The notes: generated by a model not told the origin, from the letters alone. A stretch of 64,000 nt of DNA from Acidobacteriota bacterium (GCA_963663035.1 OY760074.1:1216001-1280000); one strand, 5' to 3'. Counted from the first letter of the stretch, positions 32,615-47,725 are shown. Numbers and translations: made by a program.

Positions 32615-32845
32615 AACGATTCCCGGCTTTGACCCACCCAAAATGCTCCCTTTTGTGAGATGTAGATAGCCCCCAATGCCAAATCTTGAGGTGTCCTGAA
32701 AGCAATCAAAAATGGCCTCAAATGGGGTTTGAGTTGGCTGGAGTGAGTTGGAGTGAGTTTGCCGCGGGCACACTTTAGGCACAATTGGGCCATTTTGGGG
32801 TTGAGTCGGGGGGACTCAATTTGGCTGAAACCCGCGTCAGGAGCG

Positions 32846-32913
32846 TGCCCGGGGAGGGACTCGAACCCTCACGAGGGAAACCCTCACAGGATTTTAAGTC
32901 CTGTGCGTCTGCC
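32846..32913 (-). pseudogene. tRNA-Leu(UAA) 3' fragment, att-like site 1
   Basis: Reverse complement GGCAGACGCACAGGACTTAAAATCCTGTGAGGGTTTCCCTCGTGAGGGTTCGAGTCCCTCCCCGGGCA: anticodon arm TAA, long variable arm and T arm present; 5' acceptor strand absent. Confidence 0.85.
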
Positions 32914-33009
32914 TCGAACCCCAAAGCTCACCTGGCCGTAAAACGCCCAACCCACCCTCTGACCACCGCAAGGTAAGTCGGCTTAGATTTCCTCAGGCGT
33001 TTCGGGCGT

Positions 33010-33194
33010 TCGCAGGCCCATGGGCCACATTGTGAACCGGTATTATGCGGCTCAGCATAAGCGTTCCGCTTCACGCGGCATGTTCAGCGGAAGTCCTTGC
33101 CTATGAGGTAATTACGGAGGACCTTTCGCCGATTTCTGCTTGCCTCTTATTGGAGCAACTAGGATACTACTGATCAGTATACTCATCGCTACAC
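33010..33194 (+). other. Mini-integron leader copy A (degenerate intI tail and attI-like site)
   Basis: Aligns by eye with 35830-36023 and 45225-45416 (TATGCGGnTCAGyATAA...ATGTTCAGCGGAA...CCGATTTCTGCTTGC...GATCAGyATAyTCA); core degenerated to GCTACAC. Confidence 0.6.
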
Positions 33195-33221
33195 TGACGG
33201 ACAGGAAGGTGGACAGGCGTC

Positions 33222-33926
33222 TTGGTCATGAATAGTAGTAGTTATAAGTTTGGCGCCGTGAGCGGCGTGCTTGGTGCTGTACTTCTTTTTGCGGGAACCT
33301 CGCTACACCCAATGCAGGCAGATCCGAACGACCCTGTTGCTGCTTTCTCGGAGTACGCGGCCGATCGACATTGGGTTGCCAGTCATCTAACACAGCTCGC
33401 TGGAGTTACTCTCATTGTTGGCGCGCTCTTAGTGCTCGCCCGCGAGTTGGAGTCCGGTGGCCGAGCGGTTCTTCCCCGCATCGCCTCTGGGGGAGCGATC
33501 ACTAGCTTGGCGTTGACAGCTGTTCTTCAGGCAGTGGATGGCATCGCGCTTAAAGTGATAGTTGACGCATGGGCTGGGGTGGAGTCCCCCGAAAAGGCCG
33601 GTTTGTTCCATGCAGCATTCGGAGTCCGTCAGGTCGAAGTCGGGCTCGCCAGTGTCACGAGTATGTTCTTCGGCCTCACAGTTACGGTGTACGGAATTGC
33701 GTTATGGAACAGCAGGCACTATCCCCGATGGGTCGCAGTACTTGCCCTGCTGGGAGGTATCCCCACTTTGGTTGGGGGAGTTCTAATTGCGTACACTGGT
33801 TTTTCAAACTTAGCCATGACGGTCTATATGCCCGCCAGTTTACTTATCCTCGTTTGGGTTATTTTAGTGGGTGCTCTTATGTGGCGCCATGGCACAGCTG
33901 TCGGAGGTGGCCCAGAAACCTCTTGA
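33222..33926 (+). CDS. Multi-pass membrane protein, probable cassette ORF of module A
   Basis: Hydrophobic ORF (LHPMQADPND, LQAVDGIALK) directly after leader A; GTTAGGC at 33932 follows but no full attC stem. Confidence 0.75.
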   Translation: MVMNSSSYKFGAVSGVLGAVLLFAGTSLHPMQADPNDPVAAFSEYAADRHWVASHLTQLAGVTLIVGALLVLARELESGGRAVLPRIASGGAITSLALTAVLQAVDGIALKVIVDAWAGVESPEKAGLFHAAFGVRQVEVGLASVTSMFFGLTVTVYGIALWNSRHYPRWVAVLALLGGIPTLVGGVLIAYTGFSNLAMTVYMPASLLILVWVILVGALMWRHGTAVGGGPETS

Positions 33927-34001
33927 GCCAAGTTAGGCGCACAAGACGCAAGGTGGGGTGACAAGATGCCGAGATCCGTAGATACCATCCGCATATATCC
34001 C

Positions 34002-34033
34002 ACTTGGCCGATAAGCCGACTATACGTTCACTG
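34002..34033 (-). other. dif-like 13-6-13 recombination site (left boundary of module B)
   Basis: ACTTGGCCGATAA-GCCGAC-TATACGTTCACTG. Confidence 0.6.
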
Positions 34034-34127
34034 AAGCGGAAACTTAAGCACTCCGGTGTCTTTGGCGACTGGATTGCTAAGGATCTTTTGGAGGACGGCT
34101 ACAACATTCGCCCAGTGCGGAAGCTAG

Positions 34128-35766
34128 CCGCAATTATTCATAAGTTTGGGGTGAGTGTCGATTTTCTGCGGAAGTTCAGGGCTGAGAGTGTGTTCAGGTG
34201 CGATTACAAGGCGTCCAAGCTTGTTGAGCCGAATAGAGATGAAGCGAGAGCCCCTTCCGGAAACAGCTCGGCCCGCAGGGGGCTGTATATCTGTGTTGGC
34301 GCAGGGAGTCAGGGGACCGTCAGGTGGGACACAGACGGTGCATCAGTAATGCGAAGAGCTTTTGTTCGGGATAAGACGATGCCAGGTGCACCCAGATGCG
34401 ACGAGAAGTTTCCCGAACCCGGGCACCGATTTTGAACAGGCGGCGGCGGAGCGTCTCAATCTCCAGGTTGTGCCAGGGAGTCCCGCACAGGTAATCCCGC
34501 AGGCGCAGGATTAAGACATAGGCCAGGGCGTGGATGAAGAGTCGGAACTGGTTGGCCAGGAAACGGTGGCAGCTCAAGCGATCCATGGCCAGATCTTTTT
34601 TGAAAGCTTTCACGAAGTTCTCGCACTGGCCCCGTCCGATGTAGTGGTCATACAGCTGCCCGGCCGTGAGATCCTGGCGGTTGGTGACCACAAAGCGACG
34701 GTTGAACCCGCGCTCGCTCACTTCCACCTTGGCCACCATGCGCCGCTCCCGGTCCCAACTGTCGGCCTGATAGACGAGCTCGGTGAACTGGCGTTGCTTT
34801 TCTCCTGAGTCGTCATAGTCTGCTTGCACCTGCTCAACCAAGGGCTCGACGGTGGCCGCCAGCCGGGAGTTGCGGGCAAAGCCCACCACATACTGCAGTT
34901 TTTCCTCCTCACAGAACTCGTACAGTGCCGGCGTCGCAAAGCCACTGTCGGCTCGCACTTCGATCGGAACATCGGATCCCAGAACCTGGCGCATCCGGGC
35001 CACCACCCGTTTGAGAACCGCCACCGCGTGGGCGGCCGCCCCCTGGTTGCCGGGCCGCAGTAGCGCACATACCAGATCGCCCGTCTCGCCATCGAATAGC
35101 AGCAGCGGATGATACATGTGCTCGCGATAATAGCCGTGGTAAAAGCTGAACTCCTGCTGCCCATGCGTGACGTCATCCGTGCTGTCGATGTCCAGGATGA
35201 TCTTCTCGGGCCGGCTCTTCTTGCGGTGCTTCAAGTAGGTCTCCAGCAGCCACTGTCCCAGGCGAGTGAGATCCTTCGAGTCCACCGAGTTCTCCAGTCG
35301 CGACAGCGTGGGTTGAGAAGCCAGATCCGGATCGCTTTCCGGCAGCCGATCACACACGGTCTTGAAGATGGGATCCGAGCGCAAGCTGTCGGCATCGTTG
35401 CAGTCCTCATAGCCGGCCACGATCTGAAAGCTGCGCTGGGTGAGCAGTTCGCGAATCTGGTGGCGGACGTAGCGGCTATCTCGAGCGTCCTTCAGGCAGG
35501 AGGCAAAGCCAGCCGTCAGTCCGTGCTGTTGATCCAGGGCGTACAGACACAGCAGCCCGGCATCGGAGGAGAGCCGGCCTCCATCGAATCGAGCCACCAC
35601 TTTTCTGTCAGGGTGAGATGGCAAGTTGATCTGGCAGACTGATGCATCGCTGGGCCGTACCTTTTTGGTTTGGAGTTGTTTCATAACCCCTTTTATATCA
35701 AAGAGGTACGGCATCTTTTTGTGCCCTCGATCAGACCCCTTCTTCAGAATTTATGAATAATCCGGG
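34128..35766 (-). mobile_element. IS1380-family element (1639 bp) with CTAG duplication
   Basis: Ends CCGCAATTATTCATAA and TTATGAATAATCCGGG; CTAG at 34124-34127 and 35767-35770. Confidence 0.9.
34320..35714 (-). CDS. IS1380-family transposase
   Basis: FDGGRLSSDAG, GYEDCND, ASQPTLSRLEN, LDIDST, RADSGF and RGQCEN. Confidence 0.95.
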   Translation of the reverse strand: MPYLFDIKGVMKQLQTKKVRPSDASVCQINLPSHPDRKVVARFDGGRLSSDAGLLCLYALDQQHGLTAGFASCLKDARDSRYVRHQIRELLTQRSFQIVAGYEDCNDADSLRSDPIFKTVCDRLPESDPDLASQPTLSRLENSVDSKDLTRLGQWLLETYLKHRKKSRPEKIILDIDSTDDVTHGQQEFSFYHGYYREHMYHPLLLFDGETGDLVCALLRPGNQGAAAHAVAVLKRVVARMRQVLGSDVPIEVRADSGFATPALYEFCEEEKLQYVVGFARNSRLAATVEPLVEQVQADYDDSGEKQRQFTELVYQADSWDRERRMVAKVEVSERGFNRRFVVTNRQDLTAGQLYDHYIGRGQCENFVKAFKKDLAMDRLSCHRFLANQFRLFIHALAYVLILRLRDYLCGTPWHNLEIETLRRRLFKIGARVRETSRRIWVHLASSYPEQKLFALLMHRLCPT

Positions 35767-35868
35767 CTAGTGTTGACGGGGACGTGAAAACAATAATGGT
35801 CTACACCCGCGTCTTGAACCAGGGGCCGAGGGGTGTGCTGAGCCCCATAGACAAAATGCCGGACGGTG

Positions 35869-36023
35869 ATATGCGGATCAGTATAAGCCTCTTGCTTCGA
35901 GCGGGATGTTCAGCGGAACTCGTTGCCAGTAAAGCTAATTACGTAGCGTCTTCAACCGACTTCTTTTTGCATCTTATACAGACAACTGGATTAGTATACT
36001 GACCAGCATATTCACTGTTATCC
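35869..36023 (+). other. Mini-integron leader / attI-like site, copy B
   Basis: Ends CAGCATATTCACTG|TTATCC; TTATCC is complementary to the cassette's own R'' GGATAAC. Confidence 0.75.
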
Positions 36024-36039
36024 GCCAAGGATGGTTTAG

Positions 36040-36740
36040 ATGAAGTACTTCACTAAATCAGAATGGATGATTTTAGTCGGGTTGTTTGTGCTCAGTGTTA
36101 TTCCCGTCTCCGCAGGTATATTTCGTCTTGTAGAGCTCGGAGGCGGCGCAGCGATGTTACCTGAAAATCCACGTGTGACCGCGGCACCCATGCCGGTTGT
36201 GTTGCACATTATCAGCGTTGGTCTTTACTGCTACCTCGGGGCCTTTCAATTTCTCCCGAGCATCCGCCGTCACAGCCCCAAGTGATGGCTCATGATTCGG
36301 CGCCTGTGGCATGCAACGGCCGGCTCATGGTTGTTTCAGGCATTTCGGCTCTTTCAGGCCTGTGGATGACGCACTTTTATTCCTTCCCTTATGAGCTTCA
36401 AGGCGATCTTCTTTACTGCGTTCGCATTCTGCTTGGTTCCGCCATGGTCGTATTCATAGTTCTGGGTTTGGCTGCCATTTTAAGACGTGACATTGTTCGG
36501 CATAGTTCATGGATGATTCGCGCCTATGCCATCGGCCAAGGGGCGTCCACCCAGGCGCTATTGCTCATGCCTGGGTCTATGATTGGCGAAGAACCGAGTG
36601 GCCTCGCCAGAGACGTATTGATGACATTCGCCTGGATAATAAATATTGCCGTCGCTGAATGGATCATCCGAAAAGTGTTCAACAAAACGGATAACAAGTC
36701 GCTCAACACGGACGTGGCTACGCCACGCCGGTTAGCTTAG
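36040..36740 (+). pseudogene. DUF2306-like membrane protein gene cassette, frameshifted near 36283
   Basis: PVVLHIIS...LGAFQF in one frame, then ALSGLWMT...RHSSWMIRAYAIGQGASTQ in a second frame. Confidence 0.72.
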
Positions 36741-36748
36741 CGTTAGCT
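36689..36748 (+). other. attC site (module B)
   Basis: R'' GGATAAC-AAGTCGCTCAAC...GGACGTGGC-TAC-GCCACGCC...GTTAGCTTAGC-R' GTTAGCT; imperfect 60-bp palindrome. Confidence 0.88.
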
Positions 36749-36787
36749 CAGCCATGGAGAAGACAATCTTGTCAGCCGCTATCGCCC

Positions 36788-36819
36788 ACTTGGCCGTAAA
36801 ACGCCCTATTCGCCCTTGA
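36788..36819 (+). other. dif-like site (right boundary of module B, right arm degenerate)
   Basis: ACTTGGCCGTAAA-ACGCCC-TATTCGCCCTTGA. Confidence 0.5.
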
Positions 36820-37162
36820 ATGATTCCAAGAGGATCTAATCTTCAGGCCAGCCGTAAGGAGGGCGCTGACCATAAAGAGTCCTTAAGGTTGACCAGAGTG
36901 CGGCGAACCGTGTGCTTCCCGCCTTCTATTGCAGAACGCCACCTGGTAGATGCATATCCCAGTCCGGCTTCTGTGAAGGTTGAAAACATCCCCCTCAAAA
37001 TAGATGCACCACTAGTCCGTTTGAGAGCTATTTCAGCAACCAACTCATCAGGGTCGACTAGCACCGGTCTGATTGCCCGACCCCAAACCATGGATCTCTC
37101 GTATGCTGAGATAAACCAAGAGTCCTATTGGCCTGACCTGCCCCCACGAACGAGTCCACCCT

Positions 37163-38058
37163 CTATGCTAGACCCGGGACCATTTGAAGTCCACTCCAAG
37201 GGATTGGATCCAGTGCCTGCGACCTAGGTAGTTTGGCCTCTGGCGCCGGCGGCCGATAGGCCAAGGCGCTGTGAGGCCGGATCTGATTGTAATCCCTCCG
37301 CCAGCGTTCTACCAACACCTTGGCTTCCCCCAGCGTGTCGAAGATCTCCATGTTCAGCAGCTCATCCCGTAGTTTCCCGTTGAAACTCTCAATGTACCCA
37401 TTCTCCCAGGGGCTGCCCGGCTCGATGTACAAGGTCCTTACCCCAACAGCCTGCAGCCAGTCCCGGACCGCCTGTGCCGTAAACTCCGATCCGTTATCGG
37501 ACCGGATAAACTCAGGCACTCCCCGATCAACGAATAACTCCGCCAGCCGGTCCAACACGTCTTGGTGATTCATCTGCCGTTTCACATCAATGGCGAGGCA
37601 CTCTCTGGTGTACTCATCCAGGATCGTCAATAGCCGAAAGGCTCGCCCATCATGGGTCCGTTCATGCACGAAATCATAGCTCCAGACGTGGTTCTTGCGA
37701 GCCGCTCGTAACCGAACACAGGAACCGTCATTAAGCCACAGCCTCCTTCGTTTCGGCTGTCTGGACGGGACTTTCAGCCCTTCTTGTCTCCACAGCCTCT
37801 CCACCCGCTTAGGATTCACCTTCCACCCTTCCCCATGAAGTATCGCCGTGACCCGCCGGTAGCCATAACGCCCGTATTGCTTAGCAACTCCACCATCCGG
37901 GCCACCAATCGGGCCTCATCATCGGGAATTTGCCTTTCCCTTCGCTGGGTCGATCGAACCTGTCCCAGCACTTGGCAGGCCCGACGTTCGGAGACTCGCT
38001 CTGCTCCTAATCGCTCTCGTACCCACATCACCGCTCGTCTCCTGTTCGCCGGGCCTAG
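37163..38058 (-). pseudogene. IS3-family transposase OrfB (frameshifted)
   Basis: VSERRACQVLG in one frame; the integrase core is in another frame (37163-37819). Confidence 0.8.
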
Positions 38059-38333
38059 AAGTTTCCCGAGGACACTTCCTTCAGGATCTGCTTGTCCAAA
38101 GACAGATCCGCCACCAGCTTCTTCAACCGGGTATTCTCCTTCTCCAACACCTTCAACCTCTTGGCCTGGTCCAACCGGAGCCCTCCGTACTCTTTGCGCC
38201 ACCGGTAGTAGGTCTGCTCGCTCACCCCCATCTGCTTCGACACCTGTCCCACCCTCTGTCCTTGGGCCAGACCCACCTCTGCCTCACGCAGCTTCATGAT
38301 GATCTGTTCTGCCCTAAACCGCTTCCCTGCCAT
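38055..38333 (-). CDS. IS3-family transposase OrfA
   Basis: GVSEQTYYRWRKEYGG...LEKENTRLKKLVADLSLD; ends at a GGGAAAC slippery-like site. Confidence 0.9.
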   Translation of the reverse strand: MAGKRFRAEQIIMKLREAEVGLAQGQRVGQVSKQMGVSEQTYYRWRKEYGGLRLDQAKRLKVLEKENTRLKKLVADLSLDKQILKEVSSGNF

Positions 38334-38400
38334 CCTTGCCTCCTTCCTAAACCGGAAATCCTAACATTCAAACTGGACTCGTTTTAGGGGGCAAGGTCAA

Positions 38401-38659
38401 GTGGCGCATGGACTACAATCAGCAAAGACCTCATAGCTCGCTTAGGGATCAAACGCCGGAGGCTTTTGCCCTCGCTAGCGAGGGCAAAGAAAGGGGAGGC
38501 ACTCACGTGAGTAGGGTGAGTGTTCTAGAGCCCCAAGGGGTGGGTGTTTCACCCATCCCAACCTGAAAATACTAACCCTATGCTTGGTACAGTTTTCCGG
38601 GGCAGGTCAGTGGTCCCAGGTCTAACTTAGAAGGTGGACTCGTTCGTGGGGGCAGGTCA
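38401..38659 (+). mobile_element. IS3-family debris: second transposase 3' end plus two stacked right ends
   Basis: WRMDYNQQRPHSSLRDQTPEAFA; ends ...GGGGCAGGTCA at 38609 and 38659, the latter the reverse complement of the 37134 end. Confidence 0.75.
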
Positions 38660-39004
38660 GACTTCGCCGCACTGAGGAATTACTGCCGTCATCTGGAGTT
38701 GAACTTTGCCTCCTTTGCCGTGCTGACTCCTCTGCCGGGGACTGACCTATATCACGAGGTGAGAGATCGGCTCATCACGCGCAACTATGATTGCTTTGAC
38801 TTCATTCACACGCTGCTCCCGACGACACTCCCTCTCAAGGATTTCTATGCGGAGTATCACGATCTTTATAAAAACGGGATCGCCCTGAGCAAGCAGCTCT
38901 CTTTGCTTAAGAAGTATCCATTACGAGAAATCCCAGGCTTACTGGCAAAGGGACGCCGATTCTACAAGAGACTCAAGACGGCCTACCTGGACTATGAGAA
39001 TTGA
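38660..39004 (+). pseudogene. Radical SAM (B12-binding type) C-terminal fragment, cassette truncated by IS3 debris
   Basis: FAVLTPLPGTDLY motif; no N-terminus; followed by attC. Confidence 0.72.
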
Positions 39005-39027
39005 ACGTTGTTGGCGTGTCACTAGCC

Positions 39028-39091
39028 GTCTAACCAGTCGCTCCAGCCGCCGCGGGCCCGAGGCCCGCGCGGGCTGAGCTCATCGTTAGCT
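39028..39091 (+). other. attC site (module D)
   Basis: R'' GTCTAAC-CAGTCGCTCCAGCC...GCGGGCC-CGA-GGCCCGC...GGCTGAGCTCATC-R' GTTAGCT. Confidence 0.88.
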
Positions 39092-39125
39092 CAGCCATAG
39101 AGAAGCCAATCACCACCCTTTCGCC

Positions 39126-39157
39126 ACTTGGATGTATAACGCCCTTACCGGAAACTG
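39126..39157 (+). other. dif-like 13-6-13 site
   Basis: ACTTGGATGTATA-ACGCCC-TTACCGGAAACTG. Confidence 0.62.
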
Positions 39158-39219
39158 ATCGACAACCGAAGGTTCAGGTTTGGTGCAAAGTGGTGCATAT
39201 TGATGTATAATTGTAGTTT

Positions 39220-39477
39220 ATGGCAACCATGGAAAAACCCATTCGTCAGAGCATCTCGCTGCCCTCTCGTCTGGCCAAGCGGGTCAAGGCTTTGGCCAAG
39301 CACCAGAAGACCAGCGCGAACCGAGTTCTCGTTGAGCTCATCGAGACTGGGCTGGAGTCGAAGGAAGCTGAGAAACACCGGTTCTTTAAACTGGCAGACC
39401 GGTTGAGTACTTCGACCGATAGAGCAGAGCAGCGGCGCATCAAGGAGGAGCTGGCACGCCTGACGTTTGGGGAGTAG
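39220..39477 (+). CDS. Ribbon-helix-helix (CopG-like) protein, putative antitoxin
   Basis: RQSISLPSRLAKRVKALAKHQKTSANRVLVELIETGL fits an RHH strand-helix-helix pattern. Confidence 0.75.
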   Translation: MATMEKPIRQSISLPSRLAKRVKALAKHQKTSANRVLVELIETGLESKEAEKHRFFKLADRLSTSTDRAEQRRIKEELARLTFGE

Positions 39478-39720
39478 ATGCCGAAAATTCAATGGAAGAA
39501 TCTCCCGCCTGCCCTCCGGGATCATCTCTTCGATCGACTTCGCGAGCGAAAAGTCACAGTCGAGAACCTCTATCAGTTGAAACTTTGGCGCGAAACCGAG
39601 CCCGAGGCTCCAGAAGGACTTTGGTACAAGGACTTTGGATCGTTCAAGATCTGTGGGGAAGGGAGATATCCGAAGACCTTTCTACTGCGCGGTCAGCCCG
39701 CCAAGGGGGTGAAGCTCTGA
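39478..39720 (+). CDS. Small basic hypothetical protein, putative toxin
   Basis: 80 aa, ATG directly after the RHH stop (TAGATG), GGAG RBS inside the upstream gene. Confidence 0.65.
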   Translation: MPKIQWKNLPPALRDHLFDRLRERKVTVENLYQLKLWRETEPEAPEGLWYKDFGSFKICGEGRYPKTFLLRGQPAKGVKL

Positions 39721-39848
39721 AGTACTCCCATTAATGCTTGGAAGACCTCCCGCGACCTCACGGCTACCTCTCGGCCCTATGACCCTCTACTCACCTCCGG
39801 ATGCAAGAGGACCTAATCTTCAGGCCAGCGGTAAGGAGGCCGCTGACC

Positions 39849-40799
39849 ATGAAGAGAAAAAGCAAAAGGAGTTCCAAGAAGGTTTCCAAGACCAAAACCA
39901 GGCTTCAGCTTCCCGATCTCGATCAAGCCAAGGCAGCCGTGCTCAACAGTCTAGGATCACCGGAGTCGCAACGCGGGTATCACCATGCCATCGACGAGTT
40001 CATTGGTTGGTATTGCTCTGAACCGCGCCTCTCCTTCAACAAGAGCGTGGTAACCCGCTACCGAATCCACCTCGAGGCTCGCCAACTGGCACCAGGAACC
40101 ATCAACGTCAGACTCGCAGCGGTGCGCCGTCTCGCTTACGAGGCGGCCGACTTTGGGCTGTTGAGCCCGGAACTCGCAGCGGGCATACGCCGGGTCAAGG
40201 GAGCGAAAAAATTGGGCGTTCGCCTTGGCAACTGGCTGACGGCTGAAGAGGCTCGCACCCTGTGGCAACTTCCTAATACCGAGACTCTCAAAGGCAAGCG
40301 TGACCGAGCAATCCTGGCAACCCTCTTAGGTTGTGGACTTCGTCGCCGTGAGCTTGCTGAGTTGACCTTCTATCACCTCCAACGTCGTGAAGATCGCTGG
40401 GTAATCATCGACCTGGTTGGCAAAGGGGGCCATGTTCGGACAGTCCCGGTTCCAGACTGGGTCAAACGAGCCATCGACATCTGGCTCACCGCAGCCGGAA
40501 TTGCGAGCGGTCGACTCTTTCGGTGCGTTTGTAGAGCGGGAACCGCCTGGGGCAACGGCATGACGGAGAAGGTTGTCTGGCATGTCGTCAAAAACTATGC
40601 TGCCAAGCTCGGAGCTCCAAAGCTCGCTCCACATGACCTTCGTCGATCCTGTGCACGCCTCTGTCACGAAGCCGGCGGCGAGTTGGAACAGATCCAATTT
40701 CTGCTCGGCCACGTCTCAGTGCAAACGACAGAAAAGTACCTTGGGTGCAAGCAGCGCCTTCGCGGAGCCGTCAACGATCGAATTGGAATTGAGCTATGA
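39849..40799 (+). CDS. Tyrosine recombinase / site-specific integrase
   Basis: RDRAIL...GLRRREL, GKGGHVR, HDLRRS, LLGH and TTEKY give a complete R-K-H-R-H-Y set; AAGGAGG RBS before ATG 39849. Confidence 0.93.
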   Translation: MKRKSKRSSKKVSKTKTRLQLPDLDQAKAAVLNSLGSPESQRGYHHAIDEFIGWYCSEPRLSFNKSVVTRYRIHLEARQLAPGTINVRLAAVRRLAYEAADFGLLSPELAAGIRRVKGAKKLGVRLGNWLTAEEARTLWQLPNTETLKGKRDRAILATLLGCGLRRRELAELTFYHLQRREDRWVIIDLVGKGGHVRTVPVPDWVKRAIDIWLTAAGIASGRLFRCVCRAGTAWGNGMTEKVVWHVVKNYAAKLGAPKLAPHDLRRSCARLCHEAGGELEQIQFLLGHVSVQTTEKYLGCKQRLRGAVNDRIGIEL

Positions 40800-40830
40800 C
40801 ATAGTCAGGTGCAAGGGTATACGACATCCC

Positions 40831-40862
40831 ACCCGGACGACTTGCCGACTATACGTCCATGT
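40831..40862 (-). other. dif-like site downstream of the recombinase
   Basis: ACCCGGACGACTT-GCCGAC-TATACGTCCATGT. Confidence 0.55.
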
Positions 40863-40971
40863 GAACAAGTAGGCCTGCCACATCAGCAACGATCAGTCAT
40901 ACAGATTTAGACAGGCTGAGATGCATCTAACATCCTTTGCAGGACATAACCTGCGAGAGTTGCCCAGATGG

Positions 40972-41595
40972 TTAACACCTATCACCGAGGCTCATCATTA
41001 GAAAGCCACAGAATGCAGGATTGTTCGGCGCAAGATTTGCGTTTGATTTGGCTCTGATTTCCAAAAGATTCTTACGGAATTTGCGATAGAAATCCCATGT
41101 GGGGGTGGGCCTATATTCAAGATCTAGTTCAAGTTTCTCTATGATCAATTTTGCGGTCGTCGGCTTCACAAAAACCTCTTTTCGCGGACGGTAGTATGCC
41201 TGAATTACCGTAGCAAGTGACCACTTGGCTAGTTTGTTCTTCATAAGCTGATCGACAAAAAGCTCAAACCCAATCCTCTCTTTGCCGTGAAGGAGTTCGA
41301 AGAGCGCCTCCGACACGGCTTCCTTCTCCTTTGTCTTCATTGCTTTTGTATAGTCACGGAATTTCGGCTTTTCAAACATCGAAATCATCGTCGATCGACC
41401 GACGAGTTTCGCTGTTTCAGTGACCACGTAATGAGGGTCGTTGAAATTGTCTTTTGCGAAGGCTTCCTTTGCCAAAGCCTCAAATTGTTCCATCTTGTGC
41501 TTTTTCCCAAGTTCAACCAGATCAGGGTGCTTGAACCCCCCGGGGTACTGCCTAAGAAATTTCCTTTCGGCCTCTTGGAGTACCTTGGCATTCAT
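40972..41595 (-). CDS. Hypothetical protein (207 aa)
   Basis: Clean ORF with AGGAG RBS; no motif recognised. Confidence 0.75.
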   Translation of the reverse strand: MNAKVLQEAERKFLRQYPGGFKHPDLVELGKKHKMEQFEALAKEAFAKDNFNDPHYVVTETAKLVGRSTMISMFEKPKFRDYTKAMKTKEKEAVSEALFELLHGKERIGFELFVDQLMKNKLAKWSLATVIQAYYRPRKEVFVKPTTAKLIIEKLELDLEYRPTPTWDFYRKFRKNLLEIRAKSNANLAPNNPAFCGFLMMSLGDRC

Positions 41596-41605
41596 ATTGT
41601 TTCTC

Positions 41606-41791
41606 CTAGTGCGATCTTATGTATGCTTTGCGTCCATCAATCATCTTCAGAACGTCCCGACTCATCATGCTCTTCATCATGAATGAGTCCATTAGGGAGA
41701 CTACCCAGTTCTTTGGCGCATAGTGGGTCTGCAACCCAACCCTCGTTGTGTTGTCGTCGAGCTCTCCGGACACCCCACAGCATCTGGCCAC
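41606..41791 (-). pseudogene. Possible SRPBCC-like C-terminal gene remnant
   Basis: TTRVGLQTHYAPK...MMKSMMSRDVLKMIDGRKAYI resembles a terminal strand plus helix; weak. Confidence 0.3.
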
Positions 41792-41797
41792 TGATAC

Positions 41798-42385
41798 TCA
41801 GATTGCGCTATTGGGCCTGTAGATGCTCATCATCGCGCCAGTCGAGCAAGTATCCGTTTTTATGAGCGTCAAACCTGTCGGTACGGTGCCCTGAGCGAAT
41901 AGGCGTTTCCCAGAGCCAACAAGGACGGGAAAGATCCATAGTCGGAACTCATCGATAAGCCCATGGGAAAGGAGGGTCTGGATCAGTTGCCAGCTTCCAT
42001 GAACTTGTAGCAAGGGACCGTCTTGGTCCTTGAGTCGAGAGACCTCCGCCGCAATGTCCCCTGTGATGGGCACGGAGTTTTTCCACTCGAGTTTGCTCAA
42101 GGTGGATGTCGCAACGAACTTGGTTGCGTTGTTAAGTTTGTTGGCAGGCGGGTCGTTGCCGGCGTCTGGCCAATGAGCTGCGAAGCCCTCGTAGGTCTTT
42201 CGGCCGAGTAGAAGGTCGTAGGGAGCGGCCATCGCCTCTTCCATCACCTGCTCCATCACGTCGTCCCAACAGTCGCGGGCCCAGCCGCCGTGCATAAATC
42301 CGCCCGAAGGATCTTCCTCGGGACCGCCGGGCGCCTGCATGACGCCGTCAAGAGTCAAAAATGTTAAAATCGCAAGATTCCTCAT
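41798..42385 (-). CDS. Dihydrofolate reductase-like (RibD C-terminal) family protein
   Basis: TLDGVMQAPGGPEED, LLLGRKTYE, VHGSWQL and LIDEFRLWIFPVLVGSGKRLF. Confidence 0.9.
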   Translation of the reverse strand: MRNLAILTFLTLDGVMQAPGGPEEDPSGGFMHGGWARDCWDDVMEQVMEEAMAAPYDLLLGRKTYEGFAAHWPDAGNDPPANKLNNATKFVATSTLSKLEWKNSVPITGDIAAEVSRLKDQDGPLLQVHGSWQLIQTLLSHGLIDEFRLWIFPVLVGSGKRLFAQGTVPTGLTLIKTDTCSTGAMMSIYRPNSAI

Positions 42386-42430
42386 GACGATCTCCTTGTT
42401 CTGCTTGCCGCTAGTTCATATGTCCTAGCT

Positions 42431-42856
42431 TCAGCGTGTGGTAGTTGAGTTGAATTTCGCTCGTACGTCTGCGATGTAGCTCGACTTATCTCCTCTAAAC
42501 CGATCCAGGTGTTCCCTCGTAACAGCAGTGTATAGATCGTACTTTGACGCCCAAATAAACATCTCGATGAACATAGGAAGTAGATCGAGAGCCTTCTCAG
42601 TGGGGGAGTAAATATTCTTCCTGAGATTGTTCGGATCTCGGGTCTTTTTTAGTATCTTGAGCTTCTCTAGCTTAGCGAGTCGATCCGCGAGGATATTGGT
42701 GGAGATGCCTTCCTCGGACTCCAGGAACTCGTGATAATACTGTTTTCCCAAGATGATGACGTCTCTCAAAATGAGGAGGCTCCACTTGTCACCGAGCAGC
42801 TCAAGAAAGTATGCGCATGGGCACCCGGTTCGGGTCTTGTACTTCATATCAACCAT
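42431..42856 (-). CDS. HxlR-family winged-helix regulator
   Basis: RTGCPCAYFLELLGDKWSLLILRD...EGISTNILADRL. Confidence 0.9.
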   Translation of the reverse strand: MVDMKYKTRTGCPCAYFLELLGDKWSLLILRDVIILGKQYYHEFLESEEGISTNILADRLAKLEKLKILKKTRDPNNLRKNIYSPTEKALDLLPMFIEMFIWASKYDLYTAVTREHLDRFRGDKSSYIADVRAKFNSTTTR

Positions 42857-43091
42857 AGCAAAACACCTGTTAACTTGTAAAATGATAGCATTAATAGGTA
42901 CATAAAAGCAAGCTCTATTTAAAAGGGTAAATAACATATAAACATATTATAAACAAATGGTTAATAGAAGTTCAATTGAGTAGTGTTCAGACATATAGAA
43001 AAAAATATCCATCAATAACTTGCATAATACAAGTATCATTGGTATACATAGTCTCCGACCATGAAACCTATTAACAAAGGAGGAAAAGAAA

Positions 43092-43457
43092 ATGGAAAAC
43101 ACAGTCGTATGGTTTGACATCCCGGTCACCAATATTGAGCGGGCAAAAGAATTCTATCAAGCAGTGATCGGTGCAGAACTCACAGACATGGAGAATGGGC
43201 CCGCCCGGTTTGCCATGTTCCCATTCGCGCCAGGTATCGCGTCAGGTGCACTCGTTCAGAGTCCTGACAGTAAACCAAGCGCTTCGGGCACCACGGTCTA
43301 TCTAAATGGAGGGAAAGATCTTTCAGACCCGTTATCACGCGTAGAAAGTGCTGGTGGCAAGATCGTAATGCCAAAGACCAGTATAGGAGAAAATGGGTTT
43401 ATGGCCCGTTTCCAGGACACTGAAGGCAACGTCGTAGCTCTACATAGTATGCAGTAG
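43092..43457 (+). CDS. VOC/glyoxalase family protein
   Basis: VWFDIPVTNIERAKEFY...RVESAGGKI...FQDTEGNVVALHS; AAGGAGG RBS. Confidence 0.92.
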   Translation: MENTVVWFDIPVTNIERAKEFYQAVIGAELTDMENGPARFAMFPFAPGIASGALVQSPDSKPSASGTTVYLNGGKDLSDPLSRVESAGGKIVMPKTSIGENGFMARFQDTEGNVVALHSMQ

Positions 43458-43502
43458 GAAGGAGAGCCTGGCTGTTTGGCTCGCGATTTTGGGATTTGAT
43501 TG

Positions 43503-43541
43503 AGGCCCGGCCTGCCGGTAAACTAGCCGTCGGGCCGGGCC
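43503..43541 (+). terminator. GC-rich hairpin after the VOC gene
   Basis: AGGCCCGGCC...GGCCGGGCCT; no clear U tract. Confidence 0.35.
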
Positions 43542-43592
43542 TATCGAAACGATCCCTGAAAACAGGTAATCAACACCACGGAGACTCTAAAT

Positions 43593-44300
43593 ATGCAAAA
43601 TCATAAGATAGTATCGAAAGAAGAGTGGCTTGTTGCACGAAAAGAGCTTTTGGCTAGAGAGAAAGAATCTACCCGACTACGTGACCAATTGAGTGCTGAG
43701 CGGCGGAAACTCCCCTGGGTCAAGGTCGAGAGCGAGTATCTTTTCGACACTCCGAAGGGTCAAGAAAGCCTGTCGGATTTATTCGAGGGACGTAGCCAGT
43801 TGATTATCTATCACTTCATGTACGGGCCTGACTGGGCGGAAGGTTGTCCCAGCTGTTCCTTTTGGGCGGACAATTTCAACGGAATTAATATTCACCTCAA
43901 CCATCGAGACATCAATCTGGTTGTTGTCTCTAGGGCACGACTGGAGACGCTAGAAGCCTACAAAAGGCGCATGAATTGGAGTTTTAAGTGGGTATCATCG
44001 TTTGGAAGCGATTTCAATCGTGACTACAGCGTTTCATTCACTCCCGAGGAAGCGGAAAAAGGGGAGGTATTCTACAACTTTCGCGTCGGCAAGTTTCCCA
44101 GCGAGGAGGCAGCCGGAATCAGTGTGTTTTACAAGAACGAGCAGGGAGACGTCTTTCATACATATTCGTGTTACGCACGCGGTTTGGATATGGTAAACGG
44201 CGCATACCACTACATGGATCTCGCACCCAAAGGGCGTGATGAAGGCAGTTTACCTTACACGATGGCTTGGCTCAGTCGTCATGATCAGTACAAGGATTGA
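43593..44300 (+). CDS. DUF899 thioredoxin-like protein
   Basis: EWLVARKELLAREKE, RRKLPWV, LFEGRSQLIIYHFM, GCPSCSF, HTYSCYARG. Confidence 0.92.
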   Translation: MQNHKIVSKEEWLVARKELLAREKESTRLRDQLSAERRKLPWVKVESEYLFDTPKGQESLSDLFEGRSQLIIYHFMYGPDWAEGCPSCSFWADNFNGINIHLNHRDINLVVVSRARLETLEAYKRRMNWSFKWVSSFGSDFNRDYSVSFTPEEAEKGEVFYNFRVGKFPSEEAAGISVFYKNEQGDVFHTYSCYARGLDMVNGAYHYMDLAPKGRDEGSLPYTMAWLSRHDQYKD

Positions 44301-44454
44301 AGTCCTGTCCCCGTATTCGTCAGTATCGCATCAACGGAGTTGCTCACCCGCTGGAGAATTGAAGCAAAAAAATGACTGCACCAACTAACACTGTTTTTCG
44401 CATACGTCATCTCCGCCAAACCTTTCGGAATTTTTGGGTTTGGTGCTCAAATGG

Positions 44455-44590
44455 ACACGTCCTTCCAAGACTCCATCAAACGGTAAAGCGTTCAGTCCGA
44501 GGCGATATCGAAGTCGTAGATGACGGTATGGATGCCACCTTGACCGATCTCCTCTAGAACTTTGTAGTGGCTGATGGTCGTGCCGACCAT
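44455..44590 (-). pseudogene. Decayed Ser/Thr kinase 5' remnant
   Basis: MVGTTISHYKVLEEIGQGG, followed by a degenerate VIYDFDIASD segment and a stop. Confidence 0.7.
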
Positions 44591-44795
44591 GACGTCTTCC
44601 TCAATGTGGGTGTGATTCTTGTTCAATCCTAAAACCATTGGGAGTGAAAAGGCAATCAAAATTGCCCCTTATCTTGGCTGGAGCGGGGTGGAATGGGGTG
44701 GAGTGGGTTTGGCGCGGGCACACTTCGGGCACAATTTGGGTACTTTGGGGTTGAGTCAGGGAGACTCAACTTGGCTGAAACCCGCGTCAGAAGCG

Positions 44796-44857
44796 TGCCC
44801 GGGGAGGGACTCGAACCCTCACGAGGGAAACCCTCACAGGATTTTAAGTCCTGTGCG
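44796..44857 (-). pseudogene. tRNA-Leu(UAA) 3' fragment, att-like site 2
   Basis: Direct repeat of 32846-32907, sharing ~100 bp of flank with GGCACA repeats. Confidence 0.85.
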
Positions 44858-45121
44858 CTTTTTTGACCGGGCGACTGGGCATGCAGCTGGTTCAGGCTAC
44901 CTGAGCGTCGTCATATAGGAACCTCAATAACGGATGGGTCCATTCTTCGGATAAGTATATACGGGCAGTCCCTTCAGGCTCCTTGCACCTCGTTTGGTTA
45001 GGATACCCACATGTGTTGTGTCTCTTTCGCTCTAACAACTGCACTGTTGTATGCCCTTGGGCGAAACCAGTTTCTAACCGCCTTCACGCCGACTTGAACG
45101 CACCGACCAACCAGAGCGGGC

Positions 45122-45153
45122 ACATGTACGGTAAGCGGACTATACGTCCAAGT
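45122..45153 (-). other. dif-like 13-6-13 site (left boundary of module C)
   Basis: ACATGTACGGTAA-GCGGAC-TATACGTCCAAGT. Confidence 0.68.
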
Positions 45154-45156
45154 GGA

Positions 45157-45261
45157 CTAGGAACACGAGGATGTTAAGAATAACAAATGGGGCACACCGA
45201 CATCTTGAATCGGGGACCGATGGGGAGTTCGGACCCCATGGACAAAATGCCAGACGGGTAA
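45157..45261 (+). pseudogene. Decayed IntI-like 3' end, copy C
   Basis: LG/HEDVK...HTDILNRGPMGSSDPMDKMPDG-stop with frameshifts; homologous to 35775-35868. Confidence 0.72.
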
Positions 45262-45416
45262 TATGCGGGTCAGTATAAAGACTTCTGCTTCGAGTGCCAT
45301 GTCCAGCGGAACTCGTTGCCAGTAAGATTACTTACGTAGCGTCTTCAGCCGATTTCTGCTTGCGTTTTATACGGACAATTATGAGGATATACGGATCAGC
45401 ATATTCACTGTTAGCC
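45261..45416 (+). other. Mini-integron leader / attI-like site, copy C
   Basis: Ends CAGCATATTCACTG|TTAGCC; complementary to the cassette R'' GGCTAAC. Confidence 0.78.
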
Positions 45417-45451
45417 ACACACCACAACCAGGAAGCGAAGGAGCGAAGAAG

Positions 45452-45814
45452 GTGATCAAGTTTGTCATGTGTTTGACACGCCACCCGCGTATGACTCGCG
45501 AAGAATTCAGGGACTACTGGAAGAACAAGCATGGTCCGTTCTTTATGAAGAATGCAGATAAGATGGGTGCCCAGAGGTACGTGCAATCTCACACCCTGAA
45601 CACGCCGCTAAATGAAGGCCTCAGGGCCTCCAGAGGGATGCTTCCTGAATATGACGGCGTTGCGGAAGTCTGGTTCGAGTCAGAAGAAGCGCTTGTTGCG
45701 GGAATGAGCTCTCCTGAGGGGCAGCAACTTGGCGCAGCCCTGCTGGAAGATGAGGGGAACTTCATCGACCATTCCAAATCATCGGCGTTTATCGTTGAGG
45801 AGCACGAATTCTAG
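45452..45814 (+). CDS. EthD-domain protein, gene cassette
   Basis: RHPRMTREEFRDYWKNKHGP...RYVQSH...YDGVAEVWFES...EDEGNFID. Confidence 0.9.
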   Translation: MIKFVMCLTRHPRMTREEFRDYWKNKHGPFFMKNADKMGAQRYVQSHTLNTPLNEGLRASRGMLPEYDGVAEVWFESEEALVAGMSSPEGQQLGAALLEDEGNFIDHSKSSAFIVEEHEF

Positions 45815-45816
45815 GT

Positions 45817-45879
45817 GGCTAACAGGGCGATGCAGGCGGACCGGCCTCCGGCCGGCCGCTGATCGCCAAGGCGTTAGCT
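45817..45879 (+). other. attC site (module C)
   Basis: R'' GGCTAAC-AGGGCGATGCAGGCGGACCGGCC-TCC-GGCCGGCCGCTGATCGCCAAGGC-R' GTTAGCT. Confidence 0.9.
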
Positions 45880-45920
45880 CAGTCATGGAGAAGACGATCT
45901 TCTCAGCCACCCTTTCGCCC

Positions 45921-45952
45921 ACTTGGACGTATAACGCCCTTACCGTGCAAGT
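45921..45952 (+). other. dif-like 13-6-13 site (right boundary of module C)
   Basis: ACTTGGACGTATA-ACGCCC-TTACCGTGCAAGT; left arm is a perfect inverted repeat of 45141-45153. Confidence 0.7.
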
Positions 45953-46102
45953 GAAGATTACTCAGAACCTCAGAAGTAGCTTCTGGGAAGTTGAGACCCG
46001 CACCGGACGAAGTGCCATCTCCAATTTAAACCCAGTTCTTCTCTCGAAATTGGGTCCCACAGTACCGAAGGGGAGGGAACTAAGGTTCCAGTTGATGCCA
46101 GG

Positions 46103-47725
46103 CTAGGGAATCTGGGCGCCGGCGGTCTGGGGTTCTTTGTCCGTGGTTTGGTCTTGGCGGTCTGAGGGGAACAGCAACTTGTACAGGACACTGTCGATGA
46201 TCGCTTTCCAGCTGGCTTCCATGACATTGGAGGAGACGCCAAGAGTACTCCAGGTTCGCTGACCATCGGTGGACTCGATGAGGACACGCACTTTGGCAGC
46301 AGTTCCGCTCTGAGCGTCAAGGACTCGTACTTTGTAGTCGATGAGCCGGACCTCATTAATCTCGGGAAAGAAGCGCCCCAGTGCTTTTTTGATGGCCTGG
46401 TCCTGGGCGTGAACAGGTCCATCTCCGTGGGAGACGACATGTTCCTCGACCCCGTCCACACTGATCTTGGCGGTGGCCTCACTCACAAATTGGCCGGAGG
46501 GATTCTGGTCCACCAGTATCCGGAATCCCTTAAAATCAAAGGGTTGTTCCCGGTCTTTCCCGAATCTGTGAAAAAGGAGCTTTAAGCTGCCGTCGGCCCC
46601 TTCAAACTGATATCCCTCGTATTCAAGTTGCTTGATCTCTTCCAACAGTGAGCTTAAGTCAATATCTTCCGGATCGAGATCCCCGAATTCCCGGATCTTG
46701 TAAAGCAAATTGCTCTTCCCGGACAGATCAGAGACCAGGACCCGGCGGGTGTTTCCCACCACGTCCGGGTTGGCGTGCTCGTAGGTTCGTGGATCTTTGT
46801 TGATGCCGCTCACATGGAGTCCTCCTTTGTGGGCAAAAGCACTCTGGCCCACAAAAGCGAGGTTGTTGGGTAGAACCATATTGGCCGTTTCACTGACAAA
46901 ATAGGCAAGGGAAGTCAGGCCCTTGAGTTTTTCCGGGCCGACTGTCTCTTTGTCCAGTTTCAACTCCAGGGTCGGAATCACGGAGCAGAGATTGGCATTG
47001 CCGCAGCGTTCTCCATACCCGTTAATTGTTCCCTGAACCATACGGGCGCCGGCTTGGACGGCAGCAATGGTGTTGGCAACTCCCATCTCACAATCGTTGT
47101 GGGTATGAATGCCGAGGAAGGGAAATTCGGGGCTTAACTGGTGTGCCAGGGATTGAATTGTGGAGGGGAGGTTTCCTCCATTGGTGTCACAGAGCACGAC
47201 CCAGTCGGCTCCCGCCTCGCGGGCCGTCCGAAGCACGGCCTTAGCATACCTGGGATTGGCCGCGTAGCCGTCAAAGAAGTGCTCGGCGTCAAAGATGACT
47301 TCCTTGTCCTTCTCCTTCAGGTAAGCGATGCTGTCTTGAATCATGCTGAGGTTTTCCTCCAGAGTCGTCCCCAGAGCCCGCTCTACGTGAAAATCCCAGC
47401 TTTTGCCCACCAGAGTAATCGCCGGGGTATCCGCCTCTAGCAGGGCGGCAATGTTGGGATCCCGATCCACCGAATTTTTGTAGTGGCGGGTGCTGCCGAA
47501 GGCCACAATTTTGCTCGACTCCCAGGAAAGGTCTCGGGCCCGCCGGAAAAATTCCACATCTGTCTGGTTGGAGCCTGGCCAGCCGCCTTCGATGTAATCA
47601 ACACCGAAAGCATCCAGCTTTTGGGCAATGTGGAGCTTGTCCTCGACGCTGAGTGAGATGCGTTCTCCTTGAGTCCCGTCTCGCAGGGTACAGTCATAAA
47701 TGAAAACCTTTTTGCTATCGCTCAT
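46103..47725 (-). CDS. cimA: Citramalate synthase
   Basis: YDCTLRDGTQGE, IEGGWPGSN, DAEHFFDG, GERCGNANL, AFAHKGGLH and DYKVRVL, typical of bacterial CimA. Confidence 0.92.
   Translation of the reverse strand: MSDSKKVFIYDCTLRDGTQGERISLSVEDKLHIAQKLDAFGVDYIEGGWPGSNQTDVEFFRRARDLSWESSKIVAFGSTRHYKNSVDRDPNIAALLEADTPAITLVGKSWDFHVERALGTTLEENLSMIQDSIAYLKEKDKEVIFDAEHFFDGYAANPRYAKAVLRTAREAGADWVVLCDTNGGNLPSTIQSLAHQLSPEFPFLGIHTHNDCEMGVANTIAAVQAGARMVQGTINGYGERCGNANLCSVIPTLELKLDKETVGPEKLKGLTSLAYFVSETANMVLPNNLAFVGQSAFAHKGGLHVSGINKDPRTYEHANPDVVGNTRRVLVSDLSGKSNLLYKIREFGDLDPEDIDLSSLLEEIKQLEYEGYQFEGADGSLKLLFHRFGKDREQPFDFKGFRILVDQNPSGQFVSEATAKISVDGVEEHVVSHGDGPVHAQDQAIKKALGRFFPEINEVRLIDYKVRVLDAQSGTAAKVRVLIESTDGQRTWSTLGVSSNVMEASWKAIIDSVLYKLLFPSDRQDQTTDKEPQTAGAQIP

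Follow-up and report, generated by a model that had tools for sequence, protein, structure and literature searches.

The locus considered here raises a simple question: which enzyme would act on a cluster of short, two-armed, dif-like sites that divides a gene island in an acidobacterial chromosome, and what would that action accomplish? The DNA is a 64,000-nucleotide stretch from an Acidobacteriota bacterium (GCA_963663035.1 OY760074.1:1216001-1280000; hereafter the window, with positions counted from its first letter), part of a single 3.59-Mb contig that is the chromosome of a marine acidobacterium. The original prediction had described seven such sites in two spacer classes and likened them to the pdif sites that delimit mobile modules on Acinetobacter plasmids. 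The answer favored by the present analysis, at a probability of roughly 0.55, is that they would be duplex core-type recombination sites of the Xer-like tyrosine recombinase encoded among them (39849-40799), and that sites and gene together would form a pdif-like module system bringing its own enzyme.

Direct reading of the window between 32800 and 46400 found seven 32-bp sites, all at the predicted positions and all with the dif-like layout of two 13-bp arms around a 6-bp spacer (Table 1). The outer arm is well conserved and the inner arm looser, with information content high in the outer arm, the spacer and the first seven bases of the inner arm. Sites of class A share one common spacer and those of class B a different one, from which S7 departs by a single base. 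Class is tied to orientation just as had been proposed, all four class A sites lying on the plus strand and all three class B sites on the minus strand. Their order, A+, B-, A+, A+, B-, B-, A+, is an alternation with two direct-repeat exceptions. The perfect 15-bp inverted repeat at 45141-45155 / 45919-45933 is likewise confirmed as part of a longer 35-nt pair, 83% complementary (45121-45155 / 45919-45953), and a repeat finder independently returns the same site families. The original description needs amendment in some points: S1 and S2 have deviant arms, the outer arm of S5 carries four mismatches, and an eighth, decayed site (S3b) must be added.

The arm alone is a weak signal in the window (14 matches at no more than three mismatches against 7.5 expected, with 14 reached in 3 of 100 shuffles). 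Arm and spacer together are decisive. Among the 366 arm-like matches in the 3.59-Mb genome, 10 carry the exact class A spacer and 5 the exact class B spacer, where about 0.09 would be expected per hexamer. A genome scan with a 32-column weight matrix returned 18 sites at 23 bits or more (range 23-50), seven of them within the 13-kb stretch. The next best match scored 15.2 bits and the maximum in three block-shuffled genomes was 12.8-18.9 bits, so that the family lies far beyond chance. This matrix was trained partly on the seven sites themselves; the independent support comes from the relatives.

Table 1. Two-armed sites, genes, modules and insertions of the island, in window coordinates (IS, insertion sequence; ORF, open reading frame).
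Feature	Position	Strand	Remarks
tRNA-Leu(TAA) 3'-half + downstream flank	32699-32927 and 44649-44880		
S1	32930..32961	+	class A; deviant outer arm, poor inner arm; 33.0 bits
Module A	32962..34001	+	between S1 and S5; decayed integrase tail, attI-like region 33038-33200, DUF4386-like cassette 33222-33926
S5	34002..34033	-	class B; 28.2 bits; outer arm with 4 mismatches
Module B	34034..36787	+	integron-integrase remnant (34019-34123, 35780-35869) split by IS 34124-35770
IS	34124-35770		about 35 near-identical genome copies
S2	36788..36819	+	class A; 31.9 bits; deviant outer arm, poor inner arm
IS	37133-38399		about 60 near-identical genome copies
S3	39126..39157	+	class A; 47.7 bits; outer arm 39126-39138, spacer 39139-39144, inner arm 39145-39157
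Two small ORFs (85, 80 aa)	39220..39720	+	cargo between S3 and S3b
S3b	39769..39800	+	eighth, decayed class A site; directly upstream of recombinase leader; direct with S3
Xer-like 'simple' tyrosine recombinase	39849..40799	+	316 aa; sole full copy in genome
S6	40831..40862	-	class B; 43.5 bits; 32 bp past recombinase stop codon
S6 parts (read on + strand)	40831-40843, 40844-40849, 40850-40862		inner arm, spacer, outer arm
S6-S7 cargo	40863..45121		between direct class B repeats S6 and S7; 4.2 kb, five genes
S7	45122..45153	-	class B; 44.2 bits
Module C	45154..45920	+	integrase-tail remnant, attI-like region 45254-45416, EthD cassette 45452-45814, attC
S4	45921..45952	+	class A; 39.9 bits; about 140 bp from island right end

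The immediate surroundings of the sites are partly conserved as well. Around S3 the conserved block extends to 39168, and 39124-39168 matches three other genome loci at 93-95%. An alignment places S3b in register with its class A counterparts at S2 and at three distant loci (L033, L034 and L036), and the inner-side flank of S7 is kept in two same-genus relatives (L026, 94% over 88 bp; L023, 88% over 109 bp). Two flank motifs stand outside the arms. In this genus, class A sites are preceded by a conserved flank of 45-50 bp, in which a 7-bp inverted repeat with a 3-base loop is found (45880-45905, and the same before S2 and S3), and in distant Acidobacteriota the A and B sites share a different motif about 13-15 bp outside the outer arm. 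Because of these conserved motifs, the functional sites may be longer than 32 bp.

Three more mundane origins were considered and rejected. Conserved coding sequence is ruled out by the different reading frames, judged by eye, in which the class A site lies in S2 and S4, and by a class B outer arm that belongs to no intact integron integrase in a same-genus relative (G003). Nor is the class B site native to an integron-integrase gene, the integrase of G003 being without such a site. Finally, the sites are not the attL and attR of an integrated island, as the two spacers have no common core in either orientation and the empty locus of five relatives is also without a site.

The link between sites and recombinase is their placement around its gene, which in the window has S3 upstream and S6 shortly beyond its stop codon. 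A survey of one genome per species returned 248 relatives of the recombinase. The best 80 (66-93% protein identity) come mostly from metagenome-assembled genomes (MAGs) of Acidobacteriota, with single Acidimicrobiia, Methylomirabilota, Binatia and Eisenbacteria records, and their loci were scanned with a matrix trained solely on the window's genome and family. None of the conclusions depends on the one unpublished genome, G017. In 21 of the 78 distant loci with enough flank, a class A site starts 60-89 bp before the recombinase start codon; 18 of 75 have an inverted class B site whose end lies 46-98 bp past the last codon, and 10 of 73 have both. The 21 upstream sites make up nearly half of the 44 class A plus-strand matches in 635 kb, and the 12-bit threshold that yields 74 matches in the distant loci yields one after mononucleotide shuffling. 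Closer to the window, a class B site about 10-40 bp past the recombinase stop is found not only here but also in another genus (L015/L016) and in the same genus (L019). The alternation of A and B recurs in distant loci such as L046, L057 and L109, and, by eye from the site table, A and B arms are alike within a recombinase lineage and unlike between lineages. Given that genes of this family, even in distant taxa, have a class A site on one side and an inverted class B site on the other, each at a set distance, the acting enzyme would more likely be the encoded recombinase than the host XerC/XerD. The original picture of a pdif-like module system keeps its geometry, its two classes and its bracketing of modules, but probably has to change its enzyme.

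The recombinase itself is a two-domain protein with a nearly complete Phage_integrase match (PF00589, 3e-21, model positions 2-166 of 172). It scores 112, 102, 54 and 95 bits against the XerC, XerD, XerS and XerA models, whose cut-offs are 335, 330, 267 and 220, and the closest solved structures by sequence are XerA (4a8e) and XerD (1a0p). Against the integron-integrase model it matches in its C-terminal 66 residues only, at 38 bits versus a cut-off of 265. A promoter scan returned no promoter-like site in 38900-41000. A second copy begins after S2, where the recombinase leader and first codons are repeated (36827-36879, 92% to 39804-39856); it is truncated, with an IS interrupting at 37133. 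Homologous recombinases also reside on acidobacterial and Deinococcus plasmids. One of them, 63% identical, lies on the conjugative plasmid pACIX905 of a cultured acidobacterium, Granulicella tundricola MP5ACTX9 (L130, 73,447-74,400), and is a possible experimental model. The matrix trained on the window's genome and family detects no site beside it; by eye, this gene has its own, different inverted repeat just before its start and past its stop codon. Elsewhere, in L017/L032 (G006:C266, about 1650-2104), the recombinase is cut near residue 290 and joined to an attI-like region at a short shared stretch, which is due either to a deletion at microhomology or to chimeric assembly.

How the sites are arranged bears on what the enzyme would do. 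Around the recombinase gene the outer arms point outward; modules B and C, each bounded by one class B and one class A site, have them turned inward. The sites indeed bracket module B (34002/36788), module C (45122/45921) and the block of small ORFs and recombinase (39126/40831), as had been claimed. The further idea of inverted-pair bracketing holds in so far as sites of opposite class flank modules, but sites of the same class are always in direct orientation within the window, and cargo also lies between such like, direct sites: two small ORFs between S3 and S3b, and 4.2 kb between S6 and S7. The window has no module in inverted form and no inverted pair of one class. Among relatives, L021 has four class B sites in a direct array, 1.0-1.5 kb apart, with unrelated genes between them. 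Back-to-back A-B pairs of 66-89 bp, with 2-25 bp between the sites, number nine in relatives' contigs and two in this genome. Because same-class sites are direct and cargo lies between direct repeats, insertion and exchange between like sites fit this arrangement better than inversion does.

Flanks reassort at the sites. The left-flank type common to S3 and S4 is combined with two right sides, that of S3 and the one found at genome 2,884,262, and the latter is in turn joined to a tRNA-fragment left flank at 2,363,319. The right side of S3 is found with three further left flanks (genome 74,238; 900,091; 2,882,581). Between genera, blocks of 45-110 bp around the sites are common at 88-97%, with different DNA on both sides. 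The 24 public runs that were consulted are all assembled contigs, in which rare junctions are invisible. Their joints include IS-free forms, a cassette-sized skip from 36020 (attI-like) to 36741 (attC end) and short A-B pair forms. Joints of this last form, 45940 to 34012 and 39158 to 45121 with 27 other letters between, have short matching sides; they look like A-B pair forms of related strains and are not counted as evidence of activity.

A mechanism can be proposed that would produce such a locus. The two 13-bp arms of a site would bind one enzyme, and the 6-bp spacer would be the crossover region, with the strand cuts presumably placed accordingly. The basic unit would be the recombinase gene framed by two sites, one of class A in the leader and one of class B, inverted, shortly beyond the stop codon, each with its better-conserved arm turned outward. 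Spacer mismatch blocks recombination by tyrosine recombinases. On the strength of this general knowledge of other members of the family, the differing spacers are assumed to stop A from recombining with B, so that the recombinase gene would be neither inverted nor deleted. Like sites, by contrast, would recombine, any A with any A and any B with any B. A circle with one site could insert beside a like site, leaving its cargo between direct repeats and building direct arrays, and one A-with-A plus one B-with-B event between two molecules would swap the intervening DNA. Under this scheme the right-hand 13 kb of the island would be a mosaic built by like-site insertion and exchange, in which truncated integron platforms, each an integrase tail, an attI and one cassette, became one kind of module.

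Several observations weigh against this assignment. Most distant loci miss the matrix threshold, 57 of 78 at the class A position and 57 of 75 at the class B position; by eye, some of these have diverged look-alikes at the same places and others have nothing. Among 14 same-family relatives, a recombinase match at E 1e-30 or better was found in only four, and all four are partial or contain stop codons, yet a module C query matched in 10 of the 14 genomes and sites were confirmed in the contigs of nine. These relatives are MAGs, 65-96% complete, and incompleteness may explain the missing recombinase; the scarcity nevertheless leaves room for another enzyme or for dead, relic sites. The locus also looks worn: IS have inserted twice, one site is decayed, a second recombinase copy is truncated and the arms of S1 and S2 deviate. 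No recombination product was observed; the joints in the public-run contigs fit strain variation and can stem from related strains or species. Furthermore, the genome has two XerC/XerD-like genes, and the inner arm ends of the sites resemble a candidate host dif at about 1,688,903. Lastly, the window (genome 1.216-1.280 Mb) lies on a broad maximum of cumulative GC skew, with its peak near 1.22 Mb and a plateau that reaches to about 1.45 Mb. The island is therefore in the probable terminus region of the chromosome, where a link to host Xer is conceivable; within the window itself, noise in the skew prevents placing the terminus switch.

Could the sites then be extra dif-like sites of the host XerC/XerD, in the manner of pdif, with the nearby recombinase a mere passenger? 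The 13-6-13 geometry would suit this, as would the persistence of sites in relatives in which only broken recombinase copies were found and the location of a class B site 1.6 kb from the candidate dif. It is unlikely all the same, given that class A and inverted class B sites keep a fixed placement around the recombinase gene among taxa that must differ in their own Xer proteins and dif sites, and that the arms appear, by eye, to change with the recombinase lineage. Even the resemblance to the candidate dif (1,688,903-1,688,930) is confined to the innermost arm bases, the outer arms being unlike; that candidate came from a search with a short dif motif and is 270-470 kb away from the GC-skew maximum. 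The class B site nearby occupies genome 1,690,496-1,690,527. Between it and the candidate dif is an RHH/MazF-like pair (1,689,640-1,690,256) with IS256-type transposase genes on both sides.

The wear just described, together with the broken recombinases of relatives, would also be expected if the sites were remnants of past events at a locus that no longer recombines. That reading seems quite unlikely: the recombinase ORF is intact here, S3, S4, S6 and S7 score 39.9-47.7 bits, like the best in the genome, and the sites are conserved between genera to the 88-97% given above while their flanks differ.

A transposon-like element, in which the whole unit from A to B moves to new targets in the manner of Tn916 or CTnDOT and the short A-B pairs are miniature derivatives, is a more distant contender, and we consider it improbable. 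The outward-facing conserved arms could act as 32-bp imperfect terminal inverted repeats, the 66-89 bp 'empty' forms do resemble miniature elements, and the gene family is spread across phyla at 66-93% identity. By eye, however, no target-site duplications are seen at the ends of the recombinase unit or of this genome's two short pairs, and the outside DNA is not arbitrary, being limited within one lineage to a few conserved types. The two spacers are conserved from taxon to taxon and do not change from one insertion site to the next, and single class B sites occur in direct arrays. Very improbable, lastly, is that the A-B pairs are folded single-stranded sites in the style of attC or of CTX phage attachment, or that the inverted sites form an invertible switch: although the outer arms of a pair can, by eye, base-pair over 13-18 bp with spacers that cannot, mimicking the unpaired spacer of attC, the inner arms of paired A and B are not complementary (by eye), sites also stand singly in arrays and A and B may be kilobases apart, and for a switch the shortest pairs, 2 bp apart, would be too close for intramolecular inversion, judging from other tyrosine recombinases, and the window has neither the inverted forms nor the same-class inverted pairs noted above.

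Returning to the proposed module system, some of its modules are integron relics. The general layout of these three mini-integrons comprises the last codons of an integrase, an attI-like region of about 170 bp ending at a GTT-type crossover, one cassette and an attC-like element. In module B, where the outer arm of S5 abuts the truncated integron-integrase remnant, this remnant is followed by an attI-like region (35864-36020), a frameshifted cassette (36040-36740), attC and a class A flank; module C likewise ends in the conserved 45-50 bp class A flank. Over 27 residues, encoded at window 35778-35858, an integrase tail aligns with positions 289-315 of the integron-integrase model (E 1.6e-4), and no match in the genome reaches the 265-bit cut-off of that model. 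In contrast, the same-genus relative G003 has a 260-aa integron-integrase match, of the type pointing towards its cassettes. The attI-like region and the integrase last codons are 77-93% conserved across families of the order. All six aligned attI-like copies (33038-33200, 35864-36020 and 45254-45416 in the window, and L002, L003 and L004) have a truncated integrase on one side and a different gene next. They are orphan attI platforms, which seem to move independently. The attC-like elements that close the cassettes are, by eye, distinct from the A and B sites. Of the original two-tier idea, with Xer-type exchange of modules outside and cassette capture inside, the structural half survives in that integron relics are modules here, but the inner tier is a relic only, without an intact integron integrase in the genome.

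The cassette of module B (36040-36740) consists of a single membrane-protein gene that a frame break divides into parts of 81 and 152 aa. In public-run contigs there are small deletions at 36285-36306 relative to the window, and the frame may be intact in other strains. The remaining cargo is more varied. Between S6 and S7 lie a 207-aa ORF, RibD_C and HxlR genes, a 121-aa ORF (43092-43457), a DUF899 gene and a block with the 3' half of tRNA-Leu (44649-44880). The pair of small ORFs beside the recombinase had been labeled a toxin-antitoxin pair, a label without support from family models: neither ORF matches a Pfam or NCBIfam family.

The closest published analogue is, as the original prediction had it, the pdif/dif-module system. 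The dif modules of Acinetobacter Rep_3 plasmids are bounded by pdif sites (PMC13141974, PMC6449649), which have two arms and a 6-bp spacer and alternate in orientation, giving two kinds of module according to the arm that faces inward (PMC13141974). Recombining pdif sites are described there as having identical or nearly identical spacers, and it is proposed that a single module is replaced by cointegrate formation at one like-spacer pair and resolution at the other (PMC13141974). The two systems share two-armed sites, a 6-bp spacer, alternating orientation and small-gene-pair cargo, and the swap route proposed here would be their cointegrate-and-resolve route. They differ in that the present sites lie on an acidobacterial chromosome rather than an Acinetobacter Rep_3/OrfX plasmid, and have 13-bp arms unlike those of the candidate host dif. 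Here, moreover, two spacer classes are tied to the two sides of a recombinase gene, whereas pdif sites have many spacers and use the host XerC/XerD; direct arrays of one class also occur here.

A second comparison is with the single-recombinase Xer systems, XerS/difSL, XerH/difH and archaeal XerA (PMC2731167, PMC3325230, PMC2958812). Like these, the present locus has one Xer-like 'simple' recombinase genetically linked to its own dif-like site. They resolve chromosome dimers, with one terminus site per chromosome and vertical inheritance; here there are 18 sites in two classes, and a gene that is patchy across phyla and lies in an island absent from all five same-genus relatives examined. Because of this number of sites, its island-borne gene and the absence of the island from close relatives, the locus is not a chromosome-dimer Xer/dif system. 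Integrons, for their part, resemble it in carrying promoterless cargo in direct arrays next to a recombinase, and real integron relics are modules here; they differ in using folded attC sites rather than plain duplex ones. In the present locus the gene has a collecting site on both sides, two in all, and the resemblance of the recombinase to integron integrases is limited to the C-terminal residues noted above.

In engineered cassette exchange, heterospecific lox or FRT spacer variants flank a segment, which can then be swapped and is neither excised nor inverted. The likeness is plain, with two sites for one enzyme that differ in the spacer only and flank a segment, but that arrangement is a laboratory design, and its proposed natural counterpart would have the recombinase inside the exchangeable segment. 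In the shufflon of plasmid R64, sites with a common spacer recombine only in inverted orientation and so exchange the end of a single gene. There too one recombinase lies beside a group of short, variously oriented sites that divide the DNA into segments; here, in contrast, like sites are direct and the modules are unrelated genes. The shufflon recombinase of R64 is Rci (PMC8138268). A self-encoded two-class layout was not found described in the full-text literature searched or in passages of that last source, a classification of tyrosine recombinases, whose supplementary tables might list the family.

Conceivably, then, the locus exemplifies a natural cassette-exchange platform, in which a Xer-like recombinase with two flanking sites that do not cross-react would collect, array and swap modules, orphan attI platforms among them, and would have spread horizontally through Acidobacteriota and other phyla on chromosomes and plasmids. 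This wider proposal is tentative, at somewhat less than even odds. If true, it would add a third kind of recombinase-based gene capture beside integrons and Xer-dependent dif modules, and the first in which the enzyme itself is among the exchangeable modules. It would further mean that integron platforms can ride as passengers of another recombination system, and would explain one source of gene-content variation in Acidobacteriota, a dominant yet little-studied phylum of soils and sediments. The movement of dif modules is still argued from comparisons of Acinetobacter plasmids, and a self-contained relative with one enzyme, two short sites and both 'empty' and 'loaded' forms would be a simple system for direct tests of module exchange. 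The compact, naturally heterospecific pair of sites with its recombinase might also become a useful genetic tool. The putative gene-shuffling layout recurs in many other bacteria.

The setting of the locus is a 20-kb island at about 25,950-46,090, of which the sites occupy the right-hand two thirds. It is recognized as an island because its flanking genes nearly adjoin in five of five same-genus relatives, where the gene ending at window 25948 is only 92-228 bp from the citramalate synthase gene (46103-47725); between these flanking genes, the five relatives have no site. S1 sits 2 bp from a 3'-half fragment of tRNA-Leu(TAA), and the same junction is found again at genome 2,363,319. The two tRNA-Leu calls in the window are not real genes; they are 3' fragments below the Rfam tRNA threshold, the true gene being at genome 3,548,899-3,548,984, and Rfam finds no other RNA family in 28000-50000. 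The 3' 64 nt of this tRNA, with up to 146 bp of downstream flank, occur in at least six copies away from the real gene, including those at genome 69,830; 74,043; 2,363,235 and 2,880,769. At three places within this genus, S1, genome 2,363,319 and L022, the fragment is joined to a class A site by the same linker of about 22 bp. On its left side the island resembles a composite transposon: two identical genes for a 230-aa transposase, which we take to be IS6/IS26-like, lie inverted at 26673-27365 (minus strand) and 30376-31068 (plus strand), with an IS256-type transposase gene and an alpha/beta-hydrolase-like gene between them.

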